From Chloroflexota bacterium (lineage in GTDB: Bacteria > Chloroflexota > Dehalococcoidia > Lucifugimonadales > UBA3495), in the NCBI GenBank assembly GCA_022562475.1, contig JADFPD010000001.1, forward strand, positions 15,172-79,171: a DNA stretch of 64,000 nt, in the 5' to 3' direction. Below are positions 32,070-46,346 of this stretch, piece after piece. The notes under the pieces were generated by a model. That model did not search any database and had not been told where the DNA came from. It worked only from the letters and a program-made list of their open reading frames with translations. Numbering within the stretch: position 1 is the first letter of the stretch; every line of letters begins with the position of its first letter. The position numbers were made by a program, and so were the translations under genes.

Positions 32070-32573
32070 TTAGTGGGCCGCGCCCTCTTCTTCCTTCCGC
32101 ATGTTCTCCCGGCGGGTGATCAGGCGGATGGCTTCATCGGCGCCCATGCGCCCCACCGGTCCGGATGCGTACATGGCGCCCAGCACCGTGCCACCCCGGC
32201 CCAACAATAGCTCGGTGGGCTGGATGTACCCACCCCGGTCCTCTGACCACCATGACCCTAGTAGGTCGCCGTCGGCTTTGGTTGCGCCGTAGGCCATGGG
32301 GAAGGTCAATTTATTGTTGTCTCTGACCTCTGTGGCCAGTTCCTTGGTATCAACGCTGACAGCGTAGGTGGTGACGTCCAGTTCTTTCAGCGCCGCTTTG
32401 TTCGCTTCCCATTCGGCTAACTGCCGATTGCAGTAGGGTCACCAATGGCCCCTATAAAACAACAACGCCGTGTACCGGGTGGGTGCGTCGTCAGGTAGGG
32501 TTATCGAGCCCCCGTCCAGCATCTGGAGAGTCATCTTGGGGAGACGGTCTCCCTGTTGCAGTTTTTCGCCCAT
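32070..32573 (-). CDS. AhpC/TSA-redoxin (thioredoxin-fold) protein with in-frame TGA at the CxxC position: candidate selenoprotein (U-P-Y-C)
   Basis: The frame is open from ATG 32571-32573 (AAGGAG RBS) to the stop at 32070, with a single TGA at 32439-32441. The context is LLFYRGHW[TGA]PYCNRQL, where homologs carry WCPYC. The track shows only the 79-aa tail. Confidence 0.65.
32417..32436 (-). promoter_or_regulatory. hairpin immediately 3' of the in-frame UGA (possible bacterial SECIS)
   Basis: The RNA CUACUGC-AAUCG-GCAGU(U)AG forms a 7-bp stem with one bulged U, starting 3 nt after the UGA. The loop does not obviously match the classical GGUC-type loop. Confidence 0.3.
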
Positions 32574-32850
32574 TTCCACTCCTTCTTTTGGCCGCCTCGG
32601 GCCTTTGGATGCGCGCCAGATATACGATGCCCCACCACGGAAACGGTTGCGGCGTGATGGGCTAGATGGTGGGCGCCGCCAGAATCGGTGCCAGCATAGC
32701 CTTGGCTGAGCACGCCGTCAACAGAGGGGGATCTCAACGCGACCGTGCCCGTATGCCCGCGATTCAATACGCCGCCTTACTGAATCATGTCATAATACCG
32801 GCAACTCTTTAGGCGGCTCGCCCAAGTGCCCTTACAAACGTGAACTCCGC

Positions 32851-35800
32851 ATGAACGACGAGCGAAAAACCAAGAAACAGCTATTGGAAGACCTGAAGCG
32901 GGAGCGAGAACGCTCGATCGCGCTTCAGGACGTATCCAACCGGCTGGCAGGGGCCCACGACTCTGCTGAGGTCCTGGACCTCATTGTCAACGAGGCCACA
33001 CGGCTCCTAGGCGCGACCGCCGCGTGGATTCGGCTGATGGAGGGAGGCGTGCTGGTGCTTGCGGCAAGCACAACGGCGGCGGCGGGCTACCTTGCCGAGA
33101 TGGCGGAGATCAGTCCGGCCCTTTCAGTCGGGAAGGGCTTGACGATACCGGGCGAAGTGTTGGCCACCAAGAAGCCGTTTGCCGGTGTCGTTGCCGAAGA
33201 AACCAACATAACGCCACAAGCGCGTCAAGCCTTCGATAATTATGGGTTCCAGGGGATAGCCGTGATCCCTATGCTGGCGAATGACCGGCCGATCGGGGTA
33301 TTGATCGTGACGGACAGCCGCGAACGCCGCTTCACCGAGGATGAGGTCTCTCTCCTGATGGCCTTTGCCGACCAGGCGTCGCTGTCCCTGGAGAAGGCGC
33401 GCCTATTGAGTGAGGCAGGGCGTGAGAAAGATCGGTCCGAGGCGCTCGTCCAAGTTTCCAACCAACTGGCCGGCGTCCACGACACGGAAAAAGTGCTGGA
33501 CCTGATCGTGAACGAGGCCGCCCGGCTCGTGGGGGCATCTGCTGCGTATCTGCGGTTGTTGGAAGGAGGCGTTTTGGTTCCCAGCGCCGCCACGGAGTCG
33601 GCGGCAAGTTTTCTCGCCCAGCAAGCTGAGGTCCAGCCGGCCCAACCCGTCGGAGCTGGGGGGAGCATGGTGGGCCGCGTGATGGCCACCAAGAAACCTT
33701 ATCTAACGGAGGACGTACGGGAAAGCGAGATCATCAGTTCCGCCGGGCGTCTCATCTTTCAAACACATGGCTTCCAAGGCGTGGCCATTGTCCCACTGCT
33801 GGCTAATGACCAGTCCATAGGCGTGCTAACGGTGATGGACAAGCGTGTACGCCTATTCACCGATGATGAAGTCTCCCTCTTGGCCGCCTTCGCCGACCAG
33901 GCGTCTCTGGCCCTGGAGAAAGCCCGGCTCTTGAACCAGGCGGAGCGGGAGAAGGAACGCTCGGACACCCTCTACGAGATCTCCAACAAACTGGCCGGCG
34001 TCCACGACACCGACGATGTGTTGGACCTGATCGTCAACGAGGCTGCACGGCTCTTGGGCGCGTCCGGCGCCTGGATTAGGTTGCTGGACGGAAACGTGAT
34101 GGTACCAAGTGCCGCCACAGGGTCCGCCGCCGCCTATATCGCCGAGCAGGCCAAGATTAGGCCTACTCTCGCAGTGGGGGAGGGGGTGAGCATGATCGGT
34201 CACGTGATGGCCACTAGGAAACCCATGGTCGCCGATGATGTCCCAGATATTACGACTCCCGAAGTGCGCGCCATGCTCCACGAACATGGATTTTACGGGT
34301 CCGCCGCGGTTCCTTTGGTCGCCAACGACCGGTCCATCGGTGTGCTCACTGTCACGGACAGCCGCATCCGCCGATTTACTGAAGACGAAGTCTCCCTCCT
34401 GATGGCCTTCGCCGACCAGGCATCTCTGGCCCTGGAGAAAGCCCGGCTCTTGAACGAAGCGGAGCGGGAGAAGGAACGCTCCGAAGCCCTCTACCAAGTC
34501 TCCAACAAGCTGGCCGGTGCCCACGACACGGACGAAGTTCTGGACCTAATCGTGAATGAGGCTGCCCGGCTCGTAGATGCATCCGCCGCATATCTGCGTT
34601 TGTTGGAGGGCGAAGTATTAGTGCCCAGCGCCGCGACAGAGTCCGCTTCCGCTTATCTTGCCGATGCTGCCGAAGAGAGGCCGGCTATCGGAATTGGTAC
34701 AGCCTCGACGGGTCATGTGATGGCAACCAAGAAACCCTTGGTCGGAGATAATGCCCAGCGGCTAAGATCTCCAGAAGCGATTCGGAGTCTCAACGAACAC
34801 GGTTTTCACAGTTCGGCTCTGATTCCATTGCTGGCCAACGACCGGTCCATAGGAGTGCTCATCGTATATGACAAGCGCATTCGCAGCTTCACCGAAGATG
34901 AAGTTTCCCTTTTAACAGCCTTCGCCGACCAAGCGTCGCTGGCCCTGGAGAAAGCCCGGCTTTTGAACAATGCGGAGCGGGAAAAGGAACGCTCGGACAC
35001 CCTCTACGAGATCTCCAACAAGCTGGCCGGCGTCCACGACACCAACGAAGTGCTGGACCTAATCGTGAACGAGGCTGCCCGGCTCATCGGCGTGTCTGCG
35101 GCCTGGATTTTTTTGTTGGACGGAGAAGTGATGGTTGCCGGAGCCGCCACGGAGCCTGAACGAGGAATGCTTGCGGACATCGTCAATTTTAATCCAAACC
35201 TCAAAGCGGAAGAAAAGTCGAACGTGCTTGGCCATGTGATGGCCACCAAAAAACCCTTGTTCGGAGAGGATGCCGAGCAGATGATGTTTCCAGAAACTCG
35301 TCAGATCTTCCTAGAACACGGTTTTCAACCCAGCGCCAGCGCTAGTGTACCTCTGGTGACAAATGACCGGTCCATCGGCGTTCTCGCTGTGATGGACAAG
35401 CGGACCCGCCGTTTCACCGATGATGAAGTCTCCCTCTTGTCCGCCTTCGCCGACCAAGCGTCGCTGGCCTTGGAAAAAGCAAGACTCTTGAACGAAGCGG
35501 AGCGGGAGAAGGAACGCTCGGACGCGCTCTACCGAGTCTCCAACATGCTAGCGGGAGCCCACGACACGGGCGAAGTTTTGGACCTGATCGTGAATGAGGC
35601 TGCCCGGCTCGTCCATACAGACGCCTCTTATTTCCATCTGTTGGATGAAGAAAACTTGGTGATCGGCGCCAATACCGATTCCGTATCCGGGTATCTCGCA
35701 GAGGCACCAGCTCTCCTAGTTGGGGAAGGGACTAGCATTGCGGGTCACGTGATGGCCACCAAAAAACCACTGGTGGTGGAGGATGTGACGGAAAATGAAT

Positions 35801-38346
35801 TGATCTCTCCCGCACGGCGCCTGAAACTTGAAGAACACGGGTTCCATGGTAGGGCTTCAGTTCCTCTGCTGGCCAATGACCGCTCGATAGGCGTGCTAGC
35901 TGTTATGGACAAGCGTATACGCCGCTTCACCGAGGATGAAGTCTCACTTTTGATGGCCTTCGCCGACCAGGCAGCCCTCGCCCTAGAGAAGGCGCGGCTC
36001 TTGAACGAGGCGGAGACGGAGAAGGAACGCTCGGACGCCCTCTACCAAGTCTCCAACCGGCTGGCCAGCGTCCACGACACAGACGAAGTGCTGGACCTGA
36101 TCGTGAACGAGGCCGCCCGGCTCGTGGGGGCGTCCGCAGGGTATATGCGGTTGTTGGAAGGAGACGCATTGGTGATTCGCGCCAGTACGGACTCTGTTGC
36201 CGACTACCTTGAAGCAAGCAACTCGACCGTCCCCGTCGAGGAAAGGACAAGCAATGCGGGACATGTGATGGCTACGAGGAAGCCATTGGTCAGCGATGAC
36301 GCGGCAGAGGATGAATTCATTCACCCCGAACAACGTCTGATACTCAAAGAACACGGGTTCCACGGGAGAGCTTCAGTTCCCCTGGTGGCCAATGACCGGT
36401 CCATCGGCGTGCTCGTAGTCATAGACAAGCGCATCCGCCGATTCACTGACGACGAAGTCTCTCTATTAACAGCCTTCGCGGACCAAGCCGCCCTGGCACT
36501 GGAGAAAGCCCGGCTTTTGAACGAGGCGGAGCGGGAGAAGGAACGCTCGGACGCCCTCTATCAGGTCTCCAACCGGCTGGCCGGCGCCCATGACACGGAC
36601 GAAGTTCTGGACCTGATCGTGAACGAGGCCGCCCGGCTTGTCGGCGCGACAGGAGCCTACATCCGGCTGTTGCAGGGAGATCAGTTGGCATCCAGCGCCA
36701 CCACCGATTCCGTAGCTGATTTTGTTGCCGAGATTATTCCGGCCGTTTATGTGGTTGGACAAGATTGGAACATGATGGGCCATGTGATCGAAACCAAGAA
36801 ACCCTGGGTCACAGAGGACGCCGTGGAGGATGAGCGAAGATCTCCAGAGGGGCGTTCCTTGTGCAAAAAATACGAGATCCACGGAACGGCTGCAATTCCT
36901 CTGATCGCCAACGACCGCTCAATCGGCGTTCTTAATTTAATGGACAACCGCGTCCGCCTCTTCAGCGATGATGAAGTTTCCTTGCTCACTGCCTTCGCCG
37001 ACCAAGCGTCGCTGGCCCTGGAGAAAGCCCGGCTCCTGAACGAAGCGGAGGCCCGGGAGCGGCAGGCCACCCAACTCTATGAGGTAACCTCACAACTGGC
37101 CTCCAACCACAACCTGGATAGCGTGCTGGACTTGATAACCCAACAAGCTGTCGAACTTACCGGCGGAAAACGTGGGGCGATTTTCCGCTACGACGAAGTT
37201 AGGAAAGGCCTTGTCGTTGCCACCATGCACAACCACCTCCCGGAATTCCGGGACATGTTTATTCGGCCCGGCGAAGGGGTTTCCGGGCGCGCCTATGACC
37301 TGCGAAAATCGGTTTGGACAGATGACCTTAATCACGATGTTTCGGTCGTATATTCTGATGATGAATCCGAAAAACTTGCGAGGAGAACGGATTCAGAATT
37401 GGCAATGGGCGTTGTGTCCGCTCCCATCATGATTCAGGACGAGGTATACGGTATCCTCTGTGTGACTTTTCACAGGCGCAAAGAGTTTTCCGACGACGAG
37501 GTTAATCTGGTCCAGAACCTAGCCGACAGCGCCGCAGTGGCCATCAACAACGCCCGGTTCATCGAGGATACCCAGCGGGCCCGGGACGAAGCGGAAGAAG
37601 CCAACCGGACCAAGAGCGAGTTCCTGGCCAATATGAGTCACGAACTGCGCACCCCGCTCAACGCCATCATCGGCTACAGCGAGATGCTGCAAGAAGATGT
37701 CGCAGGTCTTGAGAACGAAGAATTCGAGGAAGACCTCGAGCGGATCAACGGCGCCGGCAAACACCTGTTGGGCCTGATCAACGACGTCCTGGACATCTCC
37801 AAGATCGAGGCCGGCGCCATGGACATCTATCTGGAGACATTCCCCCTTGAGCCCATGATCCAAGACGTGGTGACTACCATGCGGCCCTTGGTGGAAAAGA
37901 ACTCCAACACCCTGGAGGTCGATTGCCCGGGTTCCGTGGGCTCCATCCACGCGGACACGACCAAGGTCAGGCAAGGTCTGTTCAACCTGCTCAGCAACGC
38001 CAGCAAGTTCACCGAACAGGGGACGATCTCCCTTAATATTAGCCGGGAGACCCGCGAAGGCCAAGATTGGATCAACTTCTCCGTAGCTGACACCGGTATC
38101 GGCATGACCGAAGAACAGATGGGAAAGCTATTCGAGGCGTTCACCCAGGCGGAGGCCTCAACCAGCCGACGTTACGGCGGCACGGGGTTGGGCCTGGCTA
38201 TCACCCGCCATTTTTGCGAGATGATGGGGGGCACAGTGTTGGTGGAAAGTGAGCTTGGCAAAGGGTCGACGTTCACCATGAAACTTCCGGCGGTCGTGGA
38301 AGACTCGCTGGGAACACAGGTGGCCGAACACGGAGATTCGCAATGA
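32851..38346 (+). CDS. soluble multi-GAF sensor histidine kinase (9 x GAF + HisKA + HATPase_c)
   Basis: 1831 aa with no TM segment. There are nine GAF modules separated by LEKARLLNEAEREKERS coiled-coil linkers. The H-box is MSHELRTPLNAI and the ATPase boxes are DTGIGM and GGTGLGLAI. Confidence 0.92.
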   Translation: MNDERKTKKQLLEDLKRERERSIALQDVSNRLAGAHDSAEVLDLIVNEATRLLGATAAWIRLMEGGVLVLAASTTAAAGYLAEMAEISPALSVGKGLTIPGEVLATKKPFAGVVAEETNITPQARQAFDNYGFQGIAVIPMLANDRPIGVLIVTDSRERRFTEDEVSLLMAFADQASLSLEKARLLSEAGREKDRSEALVQVSNQLAGVHDTEKVLDLIVNEAARLVGASAAYLRLLEGGVLVPSAATESAASFLAQQAEVQPAQPVGAGGSMVGRVMATKKPYLTEDVRESEIISSAGRLIFQTHGFQGVAIVPLLANDQSIGVLTVMDKRVRLFTDDEVSLLAAFADQASLALEKARLLNQAEREKERSDTLYEISNKLAGVHDTDDVLDLIVNEAARLLGASGAWIRLLDGNVMVPSAATGSAAAYIAEQAKIRPTLAVGEGVSMIGHVMATRKPMVADDVPDITTPEVRAMLHEHGFYGSAAVPLVANDRSIGVLTVTDSRIRRFTEDEVSLLMAFADQASLALEKARLLNEAEREKERSEALYQVSNKLAGAHDTDEVLDLIVNEAARLVDASAAYLRLLEGEVLVPSAATESASAYLADAAEERPAIGIGTASTGHVMATKKPLVGDNAQRLRSPEAIRSLNEHGFHSSALIPLLANDRSIGVLIVYDKRIRSFTEDEVSLLTAFADQASLALEKARLLNNAEREKERSDTLYEISNKLAGVHDTNEVLDLIVNEAARLIGVSAAWIFLLDGEVMVAGAATEPERGMLADIVNFNPNLKAEEKSNVLGHVMATKKPLFGEDAEQMMFPETRQIFLEHGFQPSASASVPLVTNDRSIGVLAVMDKRTRRFTDDEVSLLSAFADQASLALEKARLLNEAEREKERSDALYRVSNMLAGAHDTGEVLDLIVNEAARLVHTDASYFHLLDEENLVIGANTDSVSGYLAEAPALLVGEGTSIAGHVMATKKPLVVEDVTENELISPARRLKLEEHGFHGRASVPLLANDRSIGVLAVMDKRIRRFTEDEVSLLMAFADQAALALEKARLLNEAETEKERSDALYQVSNRLASVHDTDEVLDLIVNEAARLVGASAGYMRLLEGDALVIRASTDSVADYLEASNSTVPVEERTSNAGHVMATRKPLVSDDAAEDEFIHPEQRLILKEHGFHGRASVPLVANDRSIGVLVVIDKRIRRFTDDEVSLLTAFADQAALALEKARLLNEAEREKERSDALYQVSNRLAGAHDTDEVLDLIVNEAARLVGATGAYIRLLQGDQLASSATTDSVADFVAEIIPAVYVVGQDWNMMGHVIETKKPWVTEDAVEDERRSPEGRSLCKKYEIHGTAAIPLIANDRSIGVLNLMDNRVRLFSDDEVSLLTAFADQASLALEKARLLNEAEARERQATQLYEVTSQLASNHNLDSVLDLITQQAVELTGGKRGAIFRYDEVRKGLVVATMHNHLPEFRDMFIRPGEGVSGRAYDLRKSVWTDDLNHDVSVVYSDDESEKLARRTDSELAMGVVSAPIMIQDEVYGILCVTFHRRKEFSDDEVNLVQNLADSAAVAINNARFIEDTQRARDEAEEANRTKSEFLANMSHELRTPLNAIIGYSEMLQEDVAGLENEEFEEDLERINGAGKHLLGLINDVLDISKIEAGAMDIYLETFPLEPMIQDVVTTMRPLVEKNSNTLEVDCPGSVGSIHADTTKVRQGLFNLLSNASKFTEQGTISLNISRETREGQDWINFSVADTGIGMTEEQMGKLFEAFTQAEASTSRRYGGTGLGLAITRHFCEMMGGTVLVESELGKGSTFTMKLPAVVEDSLGTQVAEHGDSQ
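32905..37560 (+). repeat. in-frame tandem repeat array (period about 513-525 bp, 9 GAF units) inside the kinase gene
   Basis: The CTGGAGAA(A/G)GC linker motif recurs at 33388, 33913, 34432, 34945, 35470, 35983, 36499 and 37018. Neighbouring units share long near-identical nucleotide runs. Confidence 0.9.
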
Positions 38347-39224
38347 AACAGATAACCAGCAACGTTTGGGTTGAGACCGAGGTTAGGGGTTGCAACTTTG
38401 GGTTCGTGACCACCACCGACGGCATAGTCATGATCGACAGCCCCCATAAACCCACCACGGCCATGTGGCTGAGATCCGAGATCGAGAAACGGGGCCTGCT
38501 CCGCTACATCATCAATACCGAGCCCCACGGCGACCATTGGACCGGGAACGCCTTCTTCGATGCCCCGGTCATCGCCCACGAAGGGGTCCGCACGCGCATG
38601 CTGAACACCGACATGGCCGAGCATGCCGCCAGGGTCGGGACCTTCGGGCCCGACGAGCCTGCTCTCCTGGAAGGATATACGGCCAACATGCCGGTCATCA
38701 CCTTCCGCGACACTATGACCATGCATGTCGGCGACCACACTTTCGAGATGATTCACATGCCCGGCCACACCCTCTATCAAGCGGCGGTGATCGTTAAAGA
38801 AGAAGGGGTGGTCTTCACCAGCGACAACATCTTCCACGGGGTGCATTCCTGGCTGCACGAAGCCGACCCGGACCTGTGGTTAGTTGCTTTGGAATCGCTA
38901 CGTGGTCTGAACGAAGACATCTTTGTGCCTGGACACGGCGATATGTGCGGCAAGGGCTATCTGGACGAGCAAGGGGCGTTCATATCCGAGTGGAAGGACT
39001 ACGTCCAAGACGCCGTGGACCGGGGCATGACCAGGGAGGAGTCGGTCTCGACACTGACGGCCCTGATCGACCGCTACCCAATGGACGTGGAGCAGGCCGC
39101 CCTGGCGCCGATGGTCATGGGCATCAACGCCGGCAACCTCTACGACTACCTAACCGGCCCCTGGCCCCCCGCGTCCATCACCGGGGGAACAGTCGCCACA
39201 AGACTGCCCAGCGACGATAAGTAA
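38343..39224 (+). CDS. MBL-fold metallo-hydrolase
   Basis: 293 aa. The metal motif region is INTEPHGDHWTGN, followed by later His/Asp ligands (HMPGHT, VPGHGD). Its ATG overlaps the kinase stop (ATGA at 38343-38346). Confidence 0.85.
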   Translation: MKQITSNVWVETEVRGCNFGFVTTTDGIVMIDSPHKPTTAMWLRSEIEKRGLLRYIINTEPHGDHWTGNAFFDAPVIAHEGVRTRMLNTDMAEHAARVGTFGPDEPALLEGYTANMPVITFRDTMTMHVGDHTFEMIHMPGHTLYQAAVIVKEEGVVFTSDNIFHGVHSWLHEADPDLWLVALESLRGLNEDIFVPGHGDMCGKGYLDEQGAFISEWKDYVQDAVDRGMTREESVSTLTALIDRYPMDVEQAALAPMVMGINAGNLYDYLTGPWPPASITGGTVATRLPSDDK

Positions 39225-44315: not shown

Positions 44316-44522
44316 TTAGGGCAGACTTACCTCTTCTTCGTTGACCAGACTGGTGATCGAACTTAGAAGAAATTCCCGGCCGCCCTGTATCTCCAGCATT
44401 ACCGGATTTCCGGCAGCGCTGAAATGGGTAATTACCCCGTCCGATTCTTGGGCATGGTCTGCGGGTGTCTCGGAAACCTGAATGGTCAGAATATCGACTT
44501 CCCGGTTATATTTAATCTTCAT
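44316..44522 (-). CDS. DUF2283-like small protein (putative antitoxin-like partner)
   Basis: 68 aa, MKIKYNREVDILTIQVSE..., a typical DUF2283 beginning. It overlaps the upstream gene by 11 nt and ends 2 nt before trpC. Confidence 0.65.
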   Translation of the reverse strand: MKIKYNREVDILTIQVSETPADHAQESDGVITHFSAAGNPVMLEIQGGREFLLSSITSLVNEEEVSLP

Positions 44523-44766
44523 AACGGTCCTGCCTCGCTGGATAAATGGTGATAATGACCACCTCGCTGTTCTCCTCATATACTACCCGCAAGACGTGGT
44601 CCTCATCTAGTCGGAGCCGTGCAACAAATCGTCCTCCATACCCAGGAGACGACTCATGAGGGTTGGCCATGTCGTTGATCACCCTTTCAGGATCAACCGT
44701 TAATCCCCACTGGCCTAGGAGTTCGAACTTACCTAAGGCGTGCCGCGTTAATCGGATGGGTTTCAT
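44512..44766 (-). CDS. DUF4258-like small protein (putative toxin-like partner)
   Basis: 84 aa, MKPIRLTRHALGKFELLG...VVIITIYPA, matching the DUF4258 pattern. It starts 9 nt after the trpD stop. Confidence 0.65.
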   Translation of the reverse strand: MKPIRLTRHALGKFELLGQWGLTVDPERVINDMANPHESSPGYGGRFVARLRLDEDHVLRVVYEENSEVVIITIYPARQDRYED

Positions 44767-44775
44767 GATTGTTTA

Positions 44776-45792
44776 TCAGCCCCTCGCCTGGCTGACCTCG
44801 ATCATCGACTCCATTCGGTCGTTGGCCGCGCCGCTGTCGATGGCTTTGGCGGCCAGTTGAACGCCGTCCCGGATGTTAGAGACCAGGTCTCCGACCAGCA
44901 GCACCCCGGCGCTGTTCAGCAGCACGTAGTCGCGCACCGGGCCACCGGCGCCGCCCAACAACTCCCGCATGGTCTTGGCGTTGGCCGACTTGTCGCCACC
45001 ACGCACCGCCTCGATGGGCGTGATGGGCAGTCCGGTGTCCGCCACGGATAGCGTCCAATTGCTTACCTTGCCCCCGGCAACCTCCCAGACCGAGGTGTCT
45101 CCCGAAAGGGTCATCTCGTCCAGGCCGCCGTCGCCGTGGACGATGATCGAATGATGCGTGTCCAAGAGATTCAAAACCGCCGCCATCTTTTCGCCCAGTT
45201 CCGGGAAGGCCACGCCCACCAGCATCGATTGCGCCCCCGCCGGGTTGGTCAACGGCCCCAGGATGTTGAAAACGGTGCGGATGCCGATCTCCCGGCGCAC
45301 CGGTCCGGCGTGCCGCATGGAGGGGTGGAACGCCTGGGCGAACATGAACCCGATGCCGCACTCTCTGATGCAACGCTCTACGCTCTCGGGTGTAAGCTCG
45401 ATGCGCACGCCCAGTTCTTCCAACACGTCGGCGCTGCCGCAGTTGCCCGAGGCGGCCCGGTTGCCGTGTTTGGCCACCTTCAGCCCGGCGCCGGCGGCGA
45501 CGAACGCCGCCGCCGTGGAAATGTTGAATGTGTTCAGGCCGTCCCCTCCGGTGCCCACGGAGTCGACCAACATACCGTCCACATTTACCCGCAGAGCGAA
45601 TTCACGCATGACGGTGGCCATGCCGGCGATCTCTTCGGTGCTCTCACCCTTGAGCCGGAGCGCGGTCAAGAACGAGCCCAATTGGGCCTGGGTTGCCTCG
45701 CCGGACATGATCTGCCGCATGACCGACGCAGCGTCGTCCATGGACAGATGATTTCCCGAGACGACTATGTCTATCGCTTCACGGATTTCCAA
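44776..45792 (-). CDS. trpD: anthranilate phosphoribosyltransferase
   Basis: GEATQAQLGSFLTALRLKGES and DSVGTGGDGLNTFNIST motifs. TTG start with GGAG upstream. Confidence 0.93.
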   Translation of the reverse strand: MEIREAIDIVVSGNHLSMDDAASVMRQIMSGEATQAQLGSFLTALRLKGESTEEIAGMATVMREFALRVNVDGMLVDSVGTGGDGLNTFNISTAAAFVAAGAGLKVAKHGNRAASGNCGSADVLEELGVRIELTPESVERCIRECGIGFMFAQAFHPSMRHAGPVRREIGIRTVFNILGPLTNPAGAQSMLVGVAFPELGEKMAAVLNLLDTHHSIIVHGDGGLDEMTLSGDTSVWEVAGGKVSNWTLSVADTGLPITPIEAVRGGDKSANAKTMRELLGGAGGPVRDYVLLNSAGVLLVGDLVSNIRDGVQLAAKAIDSGAANDRMESMIEVSQARG

Positions 45793-45864
45793 CGTTAAAA
45801 GGCTCCAGCGCAGTTGTTTGAGACGGCGGCTACCTCTCCGCTGATAGGCGCCGGCTTAGCTCTA

Positions 45865-46167
45865 TCAGATCGGGTCAAGTCGTTCAAGAGGCATCGCACC
45901 GTGATGAATCAGCAAAACTTCGACCCGGTCTTGTTCTGTCATCACGCGGTAAATGATGCGGTAACTTTGGGCTATTAACTCCCGGACATCATCGCTATCC
46001 CACTCGGAAACTACCCGGCCAGACCTGGGAAAATCCTCCAATCTTGTGGTGGCCTGATACAAGCGGTAATTGACCAAGCGGGCATATTCCGGGGTATCCC
46101 TTGCCATAAACAGATAGATGGCTTGCAGGTCATTCAGCGCACGCTCAGTCCAGACTACTTCAGCCAC
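45865..46167 (-). CDS. type II toxin-antitoxin system RelE/ParE family toxin
   Basis: 100 aa, reading VVWTERALNDLQAIYLFMARDTPEYA...IIYRVMTEQDRVEVLLIHHGA, which is ParE-like. Confidence 0.85.
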   Translation of the reverse strand: MAEVVWTERALNDLQAIYLFMARDTPEYARLVNYRLYQATTRLEDFPRSGRVVSEWDSDDVRELIAQSYRIIYRVMTEQDRVEVLLIHHGAMPLERLDPI

Positions 46168-46346
46168 TTTTCCATTCGGCGCTTCGCTTCTTCTTGGGAA
46201 ACAACCTGTCCACGGTCCGCCTGTTCGATCCCCTGCTCGATTTTGTAGAGGAGGTAAAGCCGTTCCATAGCTGATTCAACGGTGGCGTCGTCGGGCAAAT
46301 CTTGGATCGCCTTAAGAATTTGGTCTTTTACGCTCTGGTTACTCAT
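46155..46346 (-). CDS. antitoxin partner of the ParE-like toxin
   Basis: 63 aa, MSNQSVKDQILKAIQDLPDDATVESAMERLYLLYKIEQG. GGAGG lies 8 nt upstream of the ATG at 46344-46346. It overlaps the toxin gene by 13 nt. Confidence 0.7.
   Translation of the reverse strand: MSNQSVKDQILKAIQDLPDDATVESAMERLYLLYKIEQGIEQADRGQVVSQEEAKRRMEKWLK

Follow-up and report, generated by a model that had tools for sequence, protein, structure and literature searches.

The window, the whole 64-kb stretch of DNA analysed here, contains at positions 32851–38346 of the + strand a single open reading frame of 1831 aa, the frame of which is unbroken over 5.5 kb. The gene belongs to a marine Chloroflexota (Dehalococcoidia-like) bacterium, and its product is a true sensor histidine kinase of class I that lies in the cytoplasm. 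The start codon is backed by the positional ortholog P0015 (in L002), the N-terminus of which reads alike (MNDxxKTKxQLLExL) and the upstream DNA of which is homologous. The gene, its output domains and its downstream neighbour are located as follows.

32851..38346, + strand: whole gene of the multi-GAF sensor histidine kinase (ORF list; Pfam, 9 GAF + HisKA + HATPase_c)
37612..37815, + strand: HisKA (DHp) domain, aa 1588–1655 (Pfam E = 2.2e-23)
37639–37641, + strand: predicted phospho-acceptor His1597 in the H-box SHELRTPLN (motif position)
37954..38292, + strand: HATPase_c domain, aa 1702–1814 (Pfam E = 1.7e-27)
38343..39224, + strand: MBL-fold hydrolase gene, downstream context outside the array (its ATG overlaps the kinase stop, ATGA)

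Pfam models GAF_2 (E = 2.5e-182), GAF and GAF_3 each match nine stretches of the 1831-residue protein; these three models (PF01590, PF13185 and PF13492) give whole-protein scores of 598, 536 and 352 bits, the curated thresholds being 28.6, 22.4 and 27. The same scan places PAS, PHY and Response_reg (PF00072) domains nowhere in the protein. There is no TM segment: the maximum Kyte–Doolittle mean over 19 residues is 1.77 and comes from a single window within a GAF strand. Cysteine occurs four times in the whole protein, not at all in units U1–U7 and once each in U8 and U9, at non-equivalent positions. Nine tandem GAF modules in one soluble histidine kinase, lacking TM segment, PAS domain, receiver and a conserved bilin Cys, had been the central claim of the original prediction; domain scan, hydropathy and Cys count agree with it.

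The kinase module has the sequence features of a class I histidine kinase, with the H-box His in the DHp domain and the N (NLLSNA, aa 1712), G1 (DTGIGM, aa 1747), F (FEAFTQ, aa 1761) and G2 (GGTGLGL, aa 1776) boxes in the catalytic domain, and AF2 predicts the helical hairpin of the DHp. A hybrid histidine kinase was considered and rejected; there is no PF00072 match and the protein stops 17 residues past HATPase_c. A phmmer search of the 64-kb window with one CheY query, which a divergent domain could escape, returned no receiver domain. Kinase and MBL-fold hydrolase are probably co-transcribed because start and stop codons overlap, and an MBL-fold neighbour also lies downstream of the ortholog in L002. 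A SECIS-like fold downstream of an in-frame TGA in a neighbouring gene was no better than shuffled sequence.

The sensory part of the protein divides into nine units, the boundaries of which are set by the peptide LEKARLL.

32851..33387, + strand: U1, type-A GAF with N-terminal helix, aa 1–179 (unit alignment)
33388..33912, + strand: U2, type-A GAF, starting at LEKARLL, aa 180–354 (unit alignment)
33913..34431, + strand: U3, type-A GAF, aa 355–527 (unit alignment; modelled, pLDDT 87)
34432..34944, + strand: U4, type-A GAF, aa 528–698 (unit alignment; AF2 model)
34945..35469, + strand: U5, type-A GAF, aa 699–873 (unit alignment)
35470..35982, + strand: U6, type-A GAF, aa 874–1044 (unit alignment)
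35983..36498, + strand: U7, type-A GAF, aa 1045–1216 (unit alignment)
36499..37017, + strand: U8, type-A GAF, aa 1217–1389 (unit alignment)
37018..37542, + strand: U9, divergent type-B GAF adjoining the kinase, aa 1390–1564 (25–33% aa identity to U1–U8)

LEKARLL occurs eight times, at aa 180, 355, 528, 699, 874, 1045, 1217 and 1390 (nt 33388, 33913, 34432, 34945, 35470, 35983, 36499 and 37018). A repeat search recovers the eight copies at spacings of 525, 519, 513, 525, 513, 516 and 519 nt, in agreement with the predicted period of 513–525 nt. While the peptide is present at every site named beforehand, the exact DNA string CTGGAGAA(A/G)GC proposed with it is found at six of the eight; position 35470 reads TTGGAAAAAGC and position 35983 CTAGAGAAGGC. 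Tandem Repeats Finder, which handles periods up to 500 nt, reports no match in the kinase gene; the period here is longer, and identity between copies is only ~70%.

Whole units are 57–72% identical in amino acids and 68–73% in nucleotides among U2–U8, U1 is 52–58% identical to the others in amino acids, and U9 is as divergent (25–33%) as had been noted. The description of the units as near-identical sensor modules does not hold at these values, and it is the pocket-side elements that vary most. The motifs quoted as common to GAF2/4, GAF3/5 and GAF6–8 are visible in the unit alignment. At the DNA level, identity is high (80–94%) only at the two ends of a unit, over roughly 150 nt at its start and 90 nt at its end, and falls to 55–70% in the centre. 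The first ~150 nt of U5 are 92–94% identical to those of U3, and the tracts 33961–34053 and 34993–35085, for which about eight differences had been claimed, differ at 7 of 93 nt.

The sequence is metagenome-derived, and related genomes carry many paralogous multi-GAF genes with a common connector sequence that could invite chimeras, so one has to ask whether the array was mis-assembled, by expansion, collapse or chimera formation, from a shorter repeat gene or from several paralogs. Against this, the units differ at 27–32% of nucleotides, no exact repeat within the gene is longer than 46 nt, the frame is intact throughout and every unit is under purifying selection. An ENA scaffold (sample SAMN16252680) spans 27922–48346 at 99.956% identity and carries the same nine units, with nine mismatches to the window, six of them in the kinase gene; the two assemblies are perhaps not fully independent. 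We regard the array as real and an artefact as unlikely, mis-assembly of the kinds listed being extremely improbable to us. The assembly-collapse hazard that had been attached to the array is likewise unlikely, given the short exact repeats and the second assembly.

Comparison with the positional ortholog reveals a change in unit number. P0015 has five GAFs and is syntenic with the nine-GAF gene on both flanks, where an MDMPI-like gene upstream and the MBL-fold gene downstream mark the locus. Conservation between the two orthologs is much the highest in U9 (identity to G4 of P0015 97% in aa and 94% in nt, dS 0.21), and immediately after it the alignment jumps by one unit.

37563..37592, + strand: crossover zone of a one-unit in-frame indel (519 nt, 173 codons) relative to the L002 ortholog (offset shift)

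To the left of this zone the DNA aligns with the last part of L002 unit G4 (~97%), to the right with the G5-end/kinase segment (83–93%), and the offsets differ by exactly 519 nt. The crossover falls inside the repeated connector, which bears out the suggestion that the array is a substrate for recombination.

The predicted structure is that of a tandem GAF protein. An AF2 model of the U3–U4 di-GAF (pLDDT 87) has the order of helices and strands expected for GAF domains, with a continuous helix at residues 157–202, and Foldseek matches it with a probability of 1.00 to tandem-GAF crystal structures. The best PDB matches are the cyclase and phosphodiesterase tandems CyaB2, PDE2A and PDE5A [1ykd, 3ibj, 1mc0, 3lfv; E ~ 1e-13, TMq 0.42–0.69] and a GAF-PHY structure. 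The AF2 models are monomers built from shallow alignments (7 and 14 sequences). That the units are GAF domains is thus upheld twice, all nine by HMM score and the modelled pair by its fold. The connection to the kinase is also predicted to be helical.

37492..37701, + strand: predicted unbroken helix of 70 residues that starts as the last U9 helix, spans the connector and continues as DHp helix 1 (AF2 m354707e0e65a)

This helix (fragment residues 194–263, aa 1548–1617) contains the acceptor His. A standard 46-residue connector helix is common to the eight type-A units, and the spine helices are the most conserved unit elements, with a top-residue frequency of 0.85–0.91; conservation is lowest in helix a2, the loops and helix a4 (0.52–0.58).

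The connector had been called a coiled-coil linker. The continuous helix is indeed predicted, but a heptad scan finds no single register that fits (best a/d hydrophobic fraction 0.61, counting Ala) and the middle of the linker is a stretch of 12 exclusively polar or charged residues; a classical coiled coil is therefore not supported. The signature of the connector is ERS in seven of nine units, DRS in U2 and ERQ in U9. It is reminiscent of the S-helix (Anantharaman, Balaji and Aravind 2006), a conserved helix of ~40 residues with a polar centre that lies between sensor and output domains; it is a parallel coiled coil of five heptads, marked by ERT in the middle and by an Asn in an ‘a’ position (PMC1592074). 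Both have a polar centre, with ERS/DRS here in place of ERT; unlike the S-helix, the GAF connector as a whole fits no heptad register and an ‘a’-position Asn is not placed. Helices between GAF domains were set apart from the S-helix by its own describers (PMC1592074).

Two GAFs on one long helix are likewise found in the GAF-A/GAF-B tandems of PDE2A, PDE5, PDE6 and CyaB2, in which the connecting helices carry the effect of ligand binding on to the catalytic domain. Sequence identity to these modules is 15–19%, they comprise two domains instead of nine, and the output here is a histidine kinase. There is no sign in the residues of the units that they bind cyclic nucleotides: the cNMP-GAF motif NKFDE (N-K … F-x3-D-E) is absent, the units having no NK dipeptide and R-F-T-[ED]-D-E-V, that is F-x2-D-E, in place of its second half. 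DosS and DosT (DevS) of Mycobacterium tuberculosis resemble the protein in being soluble histidine kinases with a tandem GAF sensor and no TM segment. DosS has two GAFs, of which GAF-A binds heme via a His that is not conserved in the nine-GAF kinase, and its DHp belongs to the HisKA_3 family, differing from HisKA.

Among solved structures the best sequence match of the units is this heme-binding DevS/DosS GAF-A (E ~ 2e-9, a weak profile match), and the His of the unit motif EHGF, present in U2–U7, aligns with the DevS His that we take to be the proximal heme ligand His149. One might accordingly picture a multi-cofactor sensor of redox state, gas or light, the units of which carry heme, as GAF-A of DosS/DosT does, or bilin, as phytochromes and cyanobacteriochromes do. 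However, the His is missing in U1, U8 and U9 and occurs in only 67 of 191 (35%) type-A units of close relatives (48 of the 191 have Tyr there), so it is not a family feature, and a weak profile match does not make a heme pocket. Covalent attachment of bilin is excluded in U1–U7 because they have no Cys, and a phytochrome or cyanobacteriochrome was rejected for want of a conserved bilin Cys and of PAS and PHY domains. We judge a cofactor sensor highly improbable. Multi-GAF cyanobacteriochromes, in which GAFs in series are each a distinct sensor for one output domain (PMC6696110, PMC8707292), are nonetheless the closest model for a single chain that takes in many different signals; their GAFs bind bilin via a conserved Cys, and the host of the present gene is not a cyanobacterium.

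The resemblance of U2 to U4 and of U3 to U5 had been read as duplication of a two-GAF block. Bootstrapped NJ trees made segment by segment led us to reject this: support for U2/U4 and U3/U5 is 55% and 65% when only the first 62 residues are used and drops to 0–2% in the core and full-length trees. The nested pattern is therefore a property of the N-terminal ~60 codons and is lost in the cores. There U3, U8, U1 and U2 fall into clades with foreign units at 73–100% support, U1 with unit 1 of P0006 (96%) and U2 with unit 3 of P0010 (76%); the clade of U8 has 94–98%. The array is thus a mosaic, as core identities also illustrate. The U3 core is 74–76% identical to units of P0006, P0015 and P0003 and at most 57% within its own protein, that of U8 81% to unit 3 of P0018 and 77% to unit 3 of P0019, with no internal value above 48%, that of U7 67–68% to P0039 unit 2 and P0003 unit 3, and that of U9 98% to its best foreign unit (U3, U8 and U9 cores are 20–57% identical within the protein).

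The expansion had also been described as recent or homogenised. Core dS between units is 1.1–3.5 and exceeds that to the positional ortholog (0.5–0.7), and on this ground a recent expansion was rejected; the values, calculated by NG86 on short segments, are noisy. Homogenisation is seen in the connector tracts only: U3 and U5 have a dS of 0.26 at the N-terminus and 1.08 in the core, and the fraction of identical codons at identical residues is 0.68 in the connector and 0.49 in the core (expected ~0.37). As core dS lies above ortholog dS and the pairing is confined to the connector end, the units are old and individually distinct, and only connector DNA is partly homogenised. Gene conversion has probably in part kept the connectors alike, and selection at the nucleotide or codon level could explain part of the likeness. 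Each unit core is under purifying selection, with dN/dS below 0.45 everywhere, 0.12–0.43 in the distal cores and 0.20 for U3 against ortholog unit G3.

Such arrays are not rare: nine GAFs are nothing exceptional, and proteins with 9–19 of them are common. The closest relatives are 45–67% identical and have LEKARLL-type connectors and 4–11 GAFs in shuffled order; more distant ones combine HisKA and HATPase_c with 12–19 GAFs. A profile scan of 1.84 billion proteins gave 8566 matches at E ≤ 1e-30, and most of the top 150 have at least nine GAFs, with a maximum of 19. A contig search with very specific peptide patterns returned only two relatives at 47% identity, one in a Dehalococcoidia MAG and one in a MAG labelled Nitrospira; these two, together with protein matches named ‘Chloroflexi bacterium’, are the basis of the taxonomic placement. 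Uncharacterised multi-GAF kinases of Chloroflexota and other phyla, annotated as ‘GAF domain-containing protein’, have the same N × GAF + HisKA + HATPase_c arrangement. The nine-GAF kinase has eight type-A units and only one of type B, whereas most close relatives have two or three of type B, and it has no receiver, unlike its relatives P0002 and P0006. What is new to the record is another nine-GAF kinase in an already known, experimentally uncharacterised class, ordinary for its clade; the locus points to no new kind of system. The literature searched yielded no paper on long non-bilin GAF arrays or SAR202 GAF kinases and no experimental study of any long non-photoreceptor GAF chain.

If only the kinase-proximal GAF or GAFs sense, the distal type-A units would form a long stiff rod (~5–7 nm per unit by our estimate) that positions the kinase, stabilises the dimer or docks partners. 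The spine helices and not the pocket side are the most conserved elements, U9 is the best preserved unit, and unit number varies freely (4–11 in relatives, five against nine in the positional orthologs), which suggests that single distal units are dispensable. On the other hand, the distal cores are held by purifying selection, and the core types U3, U7 and U8 are kept at 67–81% identity in other proteins, which is unexpected of a pure spacer; docking of specific partner proteins would fit conserved distal cores equally well. A spacer or scaffold seems to us unlikely. Less probable still is a cooperative counter, an idea raised in the original prediction, in which all type-A units bind one ligand, perhaps with graded affinities, to give an ultrasensitive or wide-range response. 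The eight type-A units do share one chassis, and the pocket-adjacent G96, K103, P134, D139 and G143 (unit numbering) are invariant among them. Yet identity between the cores is only 48–62%, variation is greatest in the parts that lie over the ligand site of known GAFs (a2, loops, a4), the strand position aligned with the distal Tyr171 of DevS differs between units (T, T, I, A, A, V, N), and each core type, taken singly, is conserved from protein to protein. Because the pocket cover varies and core types are kept across proteins, the unit pattern as read from the alignments suggests specialisation rather than redundancy, and we hold a counter to be distinctly unlikely.

The gene product is probably a dimeric kinase with a helical spine, onto which individually specialised GAF cassettes have been shuffled by recombination. 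We lean towards an explanation of the whole in which a dimeric nine-GAF kinase with distinct cores, homogenised connectors and recombining units sums its inputs. Eight type-A units are followed by the type-B U9 beside the kinase, the last connector continues as one predicted helix into the DHp helix that bears His1597, and the protein would be a parallel homodimer. Each core may answer its own small-molecule or protein signal with a shift in the packing of its flanking helices; these shifts would sum along the spine and govern the autophosphorylation balance at His1597. We know of no protein for which signal transmission across nine domains has been demonstrated experimentally. Identical connector tracts of 27–46 nt would allow in-frame recombination to add, remove or swap whole units, and such recombination would give rise to relatives with 4–11 units.

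That the type-A units and their homogenised connectors are exchangeable sensor cassettes, the connector similarity being maintained for the sake of exchange and of combinatorial rewiring, is a tentative and rather doubtful extension. Were it true, connector recombination within genes and among paralogs would keep making new numbers, orders and combinations of inputs, and cytoplasmic sensing in marine Chloroflexota would be rewired combinatorially. Long non-photoreceptor GAF chains are very common in environmental bacteria. The locus offers a clean natural comparison, since one genomic position carries nine units in one lineage and five in the other and the in-frame crossover has been mapped; together with the individually conserved cores this makes it a concrete case for the study of modular signal integration and for the engineering of helix-linked sensor chains.

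Phosphotransfer would proceed from His1597 to a response regulator encoded elsewhere. At related loci single-domain receiver genes adjoin a paralog, and on one related contig a stretch of ~30 kb holds four genes for multi-GAF proteins along with two for single-domain receivers.

The kinase gene is a single unbroken ORF of 1831 aa, in which Pfam finds nine GAF stretches with each of the models GAF_2 (E = 2.5e-182), GAF and GAF_3. Its features, and the gene that follows it, are:

32851-38346 (+), histidine kinase gene with nine GAF units (U1-U9)
aa 1588-1655 of the kinase, HisKA, C-terminal of the GAF array
aa 1702-1814 of the kinase, HATPase_c, after HisKA
38343-39224 (+), MBL-fold hydrolase gene, whose start overlaps the kinase stop by 4 nt (ATGA)

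All boxes expected of an active kinase (H, N, G1, F and G2) are there, and the putative phospho-acceptor His is aa 1597, within the H box. As predicted, Pfam detects no PAS or receiver domain in the 1831-aa protein, and no stretch is hydrophobic enough for a TM helix; there are four Cys in the whole kinase and none in U1-U7. The motif LEKARLL occurs eight times, exactly at the predicted nt positions (33388, 33913, 34432, 34945, 35470, 35983, 36499 and 37018), and an independent repeat search returns eight copies with spacings of 525, 519, 513, 525, 513, 516 and 519 nt. The linker DNA string quoted in the original prediction is exact at six of these sites and inexact at the other two. With the correct kinase motifs, nine GAFs, no TM segment and the LEKARLL positions in agreement, the descriptive core of that prediction, nine GAF modules in one soluble histidine kinase, is correct.

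The AF2 model of U3-U4 (pLDDT 87, pTM 0.67) has two GAF folds bridged by one continuous predicted helix of 46 residues (model residues 157-202), which is made up of one GAF's final helix and the connector and stops at the LAG turn preceding the first helix of the next GAF. In the PDB it is matched best by tandem-GAF regulators (CyaB2, PDE2A and PDE5A; TMq up to 0.69) and next by phytochrome GAF-PHY pairs, so the units fold as well as score as GAF domains. In a second model (end of U8, U9 and kinase; pLDDT 78) a single 70-residue helix is predicted, starting as the final helix of U9 and continuing into DHp helix 1, His1597 included. The proposed coiled-coil linker is thus a continuous predicted helix but not a textbook coiled coil: a register scan finds no single heptad register that fits the connector, and the 12 residues at its centre (NEAEREKERSDA) are all polar or charged. 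The connector has ERS at the place of the ERT of the S-helix and is a candidate member of that family; the S-helix paper puts inter-GAF helices in a separate category (PMC1592074).

When the protein is cut at each LEKARLL, U2-U8 share 57-72% protein and 68-73% DNA identity with one another, U1 is 52-58% and U9 25-33% identical in protein to the other units; the modules are not the near-identical copies that had been claimed. Similarity is a mosaic. Over roughly its first 150 nt and last 90 nt, each unit is 80-94% identical in DNA to at least one other; over the middle ~250 nt the figure is 55-70%. The segments 33961-34053 and 34993-35085, expected from hand alignment to differ at about 8 of 93 nt, differ at seven and fall within the conserved connector.

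That the nine-unit array is an assembly artefact is very improbable. A second assembly of the region (ENA scaffold, SAMN16252680) matches window 27922-48346 at 99.956% identity with nine mismatches, six of them inside the kinase gene, and also has nine units, though the two assemblies may share some reads. The reading frame is intact and every unit is under purifying selection. The longest identical tracts between units of the gene are 27-46 nt; identity of this length is enough for occasional homologous recombination and too short to mislead an assembler. Of the two hazards predicted for the array, assembly collapse is accordingly unlikely, whereas its role as a recombination substrate is borne out by comparison with P0015, a five-GAF protein (units G1-G5) on a 4-kb ENA scaffold (L002, sample SAMN16252661). 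P0015 shares the kinase N-terminus and homologous upstream DNA, and has the same MBL-fold gene downstream (84.6% nt identity), which makes it a positional ortholog. Its third unit matches U3 (79% aa) and its fourth U9 (97% aa, 94% nt); its fifth is a second unit of the divergent, kinase-proximal type B represented by U9 (U1-U8 are type A) and is not in the window gene. Up to about 37570 the window tracks the last part of unit four of the ortholog (~97%), and beyond that the last part of unit five and the kinase (83-93%). At this junction the offset is exactly 519 nt (173 codons) and the switch lies in the connector, the signature of in-frame recombination between two connector copies. The U9 tract (window 37018-37570 against L002 1688-2232; 94% nt, 97% aa, dS 0.21) is flanked by kinase and MBL sequence at ~84% nt and dS 0.5-0.7; it seems young for its surroundings, and a recent exchange between populations may be the reason.

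An HMM built from the nine units was run over the 120 best homologs and yielded 1007 units. Several window units are closer in core identity to units of other multi-GAF proteins than to those of their own.

Best core identity of window units outside and inside their own protein
U3: outside 74-76% (P0006, P0015, P0003), inside 57%
U8: outside 81% (P0018), inside 48%
U7: outside 68% (P0039), inside 62%
U9: outside 98% (P0015), inside 20%

In NJ trees U3, U8, U1 and U9 cluster with outside units (73-100% bootstrap). The U2/U4 and U3/U5 pairs, on which a nested duplication of a two-GAF block had been proposed, appear with the first 62 residues only (55% and 65%) and fall to 0-2% in core and full-length trees; whole-unit duplication of such a block is unsupported. 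On short segments, and so as rough values, dS between unit cores is 1.1-3.5, against 0.5-0.7 to the positional ortholog (MBL gene 0.53, kinase 0.70, U3/G3 0.59), and connector dS goes down to 0.26 (U3/U5). Where the residue is the same, so is the codon at 68% of connector, 49% of core and 59% of C-terminal-helix positions (~37% expected from codon usage alone), and dN/dS is below 0.45 for all comparisons. We read these sequences as pointing to old units, each individually maintained, whose connector DNA may have been partly homogenised by gene conversion. The evolutionary part of the original prediction is mostly wrong: expansion is not recent, and homogenisation holds in part for connectors but not for cores.

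Conservation among units is strong in the backbone helices (0.85-0.91) and lowest in helix a2, the loops and helix a4 (0.52-0.58). These last elements cover the pocket in ligand-binding GAFs (PDE2A, CyaB2). In the AF2 models the GAF folds are strung along an unbroken helical backbone, which terminates in the phospho-acceptor helix. From the conservation of unit-specific cores across proteins we infer that the kinase works as a parallel homodimer: every unit would respond to an input of its own and alter how the helices on either side of it pack, and these changes, added together, would set kinase activity. The leading alternative, in which the distal units serve mainly for structure or docking, seems doubtful, and counting of one ligand by all units is less likely again. 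A heme or bilin sensor is very unlikely: in alignment with DevS/DosS the His of the EHGF motif does fall on a DevS His, which we take to be the proximal ligand His149, but only 35% of 191 related type-A units have it.

Close relatives (45-67% identity, named 'Chloroflexi bacterium') have 4 to 11 GAFs in shuffled order, usually several type-A units, then one to three type-B units, then the kinase, with PAS or receiver domains added in some. Nine to 13 units are present in 53 of the 120 best hits of the first homolog search (own unit HMM). Searched with a profile, 1.84 billion representative proteins give 8566 matches at E ≤ 1e-30; most of the best 150 of these have at least nine matched stretches (maximum 19), and Pfam finds 16-17 GAFs in two of them, one also a histidine kinase. 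Proteins with at least nine GAFs are abundant, so nine is not exceptional, and the kinase is an ordinary member of a large, uncharacterised multi-GAF kinase class; no study of such arrays outside cyanobacteriochromes turned up in the literature searched. Of more interest are the standardised connectors with their mosaic of old cores, the mapped one-unit crossover and the nine- versus five-GAF ortholog pair. Among species-representative genomes, a marine Dehalococcoidia MAG comes closest (47% identity). One of the two closest genome-collection matches is a 6.7-kb contig binned as 'uncultured Nitrospira sp.' (CAYZKG010000137.1; 47% over full length), which could be mis-binned or reflect horizontal transfer; all other close relatives are Chloroflexota. 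A related genome (L018, L019 and L020; ENA ERZ24794642 NODE_622, ERZ24794639 NODE_9244) has four multi-GAF genes (2445, 1301, 786 and 1995 aa) within ~30 kb of one contig; immediately after the 2445-aa hybrid kinase come two genes for single-domain receivers and one for a pentapeptide-repeat protein.

A phmmer search with CheY detects no receiver domain within the 64-kb window. Neighbouring genes are metabolic (HpaB-like monooxygenase, MFS transporter, MDMPI/DinB-like protein, MBL-fold hydrolase, aminotransferase, SDR, trp operon). The overlap of the MBL gene with the kinase hints at co-transcription and a possible operon partner, with no clear pointer to the signal; in L002 it starts 16 nt past the stop of the five-GAF ortholog. 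A frame of 170 codons at 32070-32579 (-) contains just one in-frame TGA, at 32439-32441, and this codon occupies precisely the redox-active position (UxxC motif, LLFYRGHW-TGA-PYCNRQ). The portion after the TGA matches Pfam AhpC-TSA (E = 1e-7), public annotation has a 79-aa C-terminal piece only, and the frame probably encodes a selenocysteine peroxiredoxin-like protein, not a pseudogene. Between 14 and 29 nt past the TGA there is a small hairpin whose loop contains GU; it folds no better than shuffled sequence. The window yielded no tRNA gene. The trp operon, at ~44316-46346 (-) by the gene calls of the second assembly (trpB-like PALP, PRAI, IGPS, anthranilate phosphoribosyltransferase, GATase and chorismate-binding genes), is broken by a DUF2283 gene and by a gene for a ParE toxin, the latter preceded by a small partner gene.
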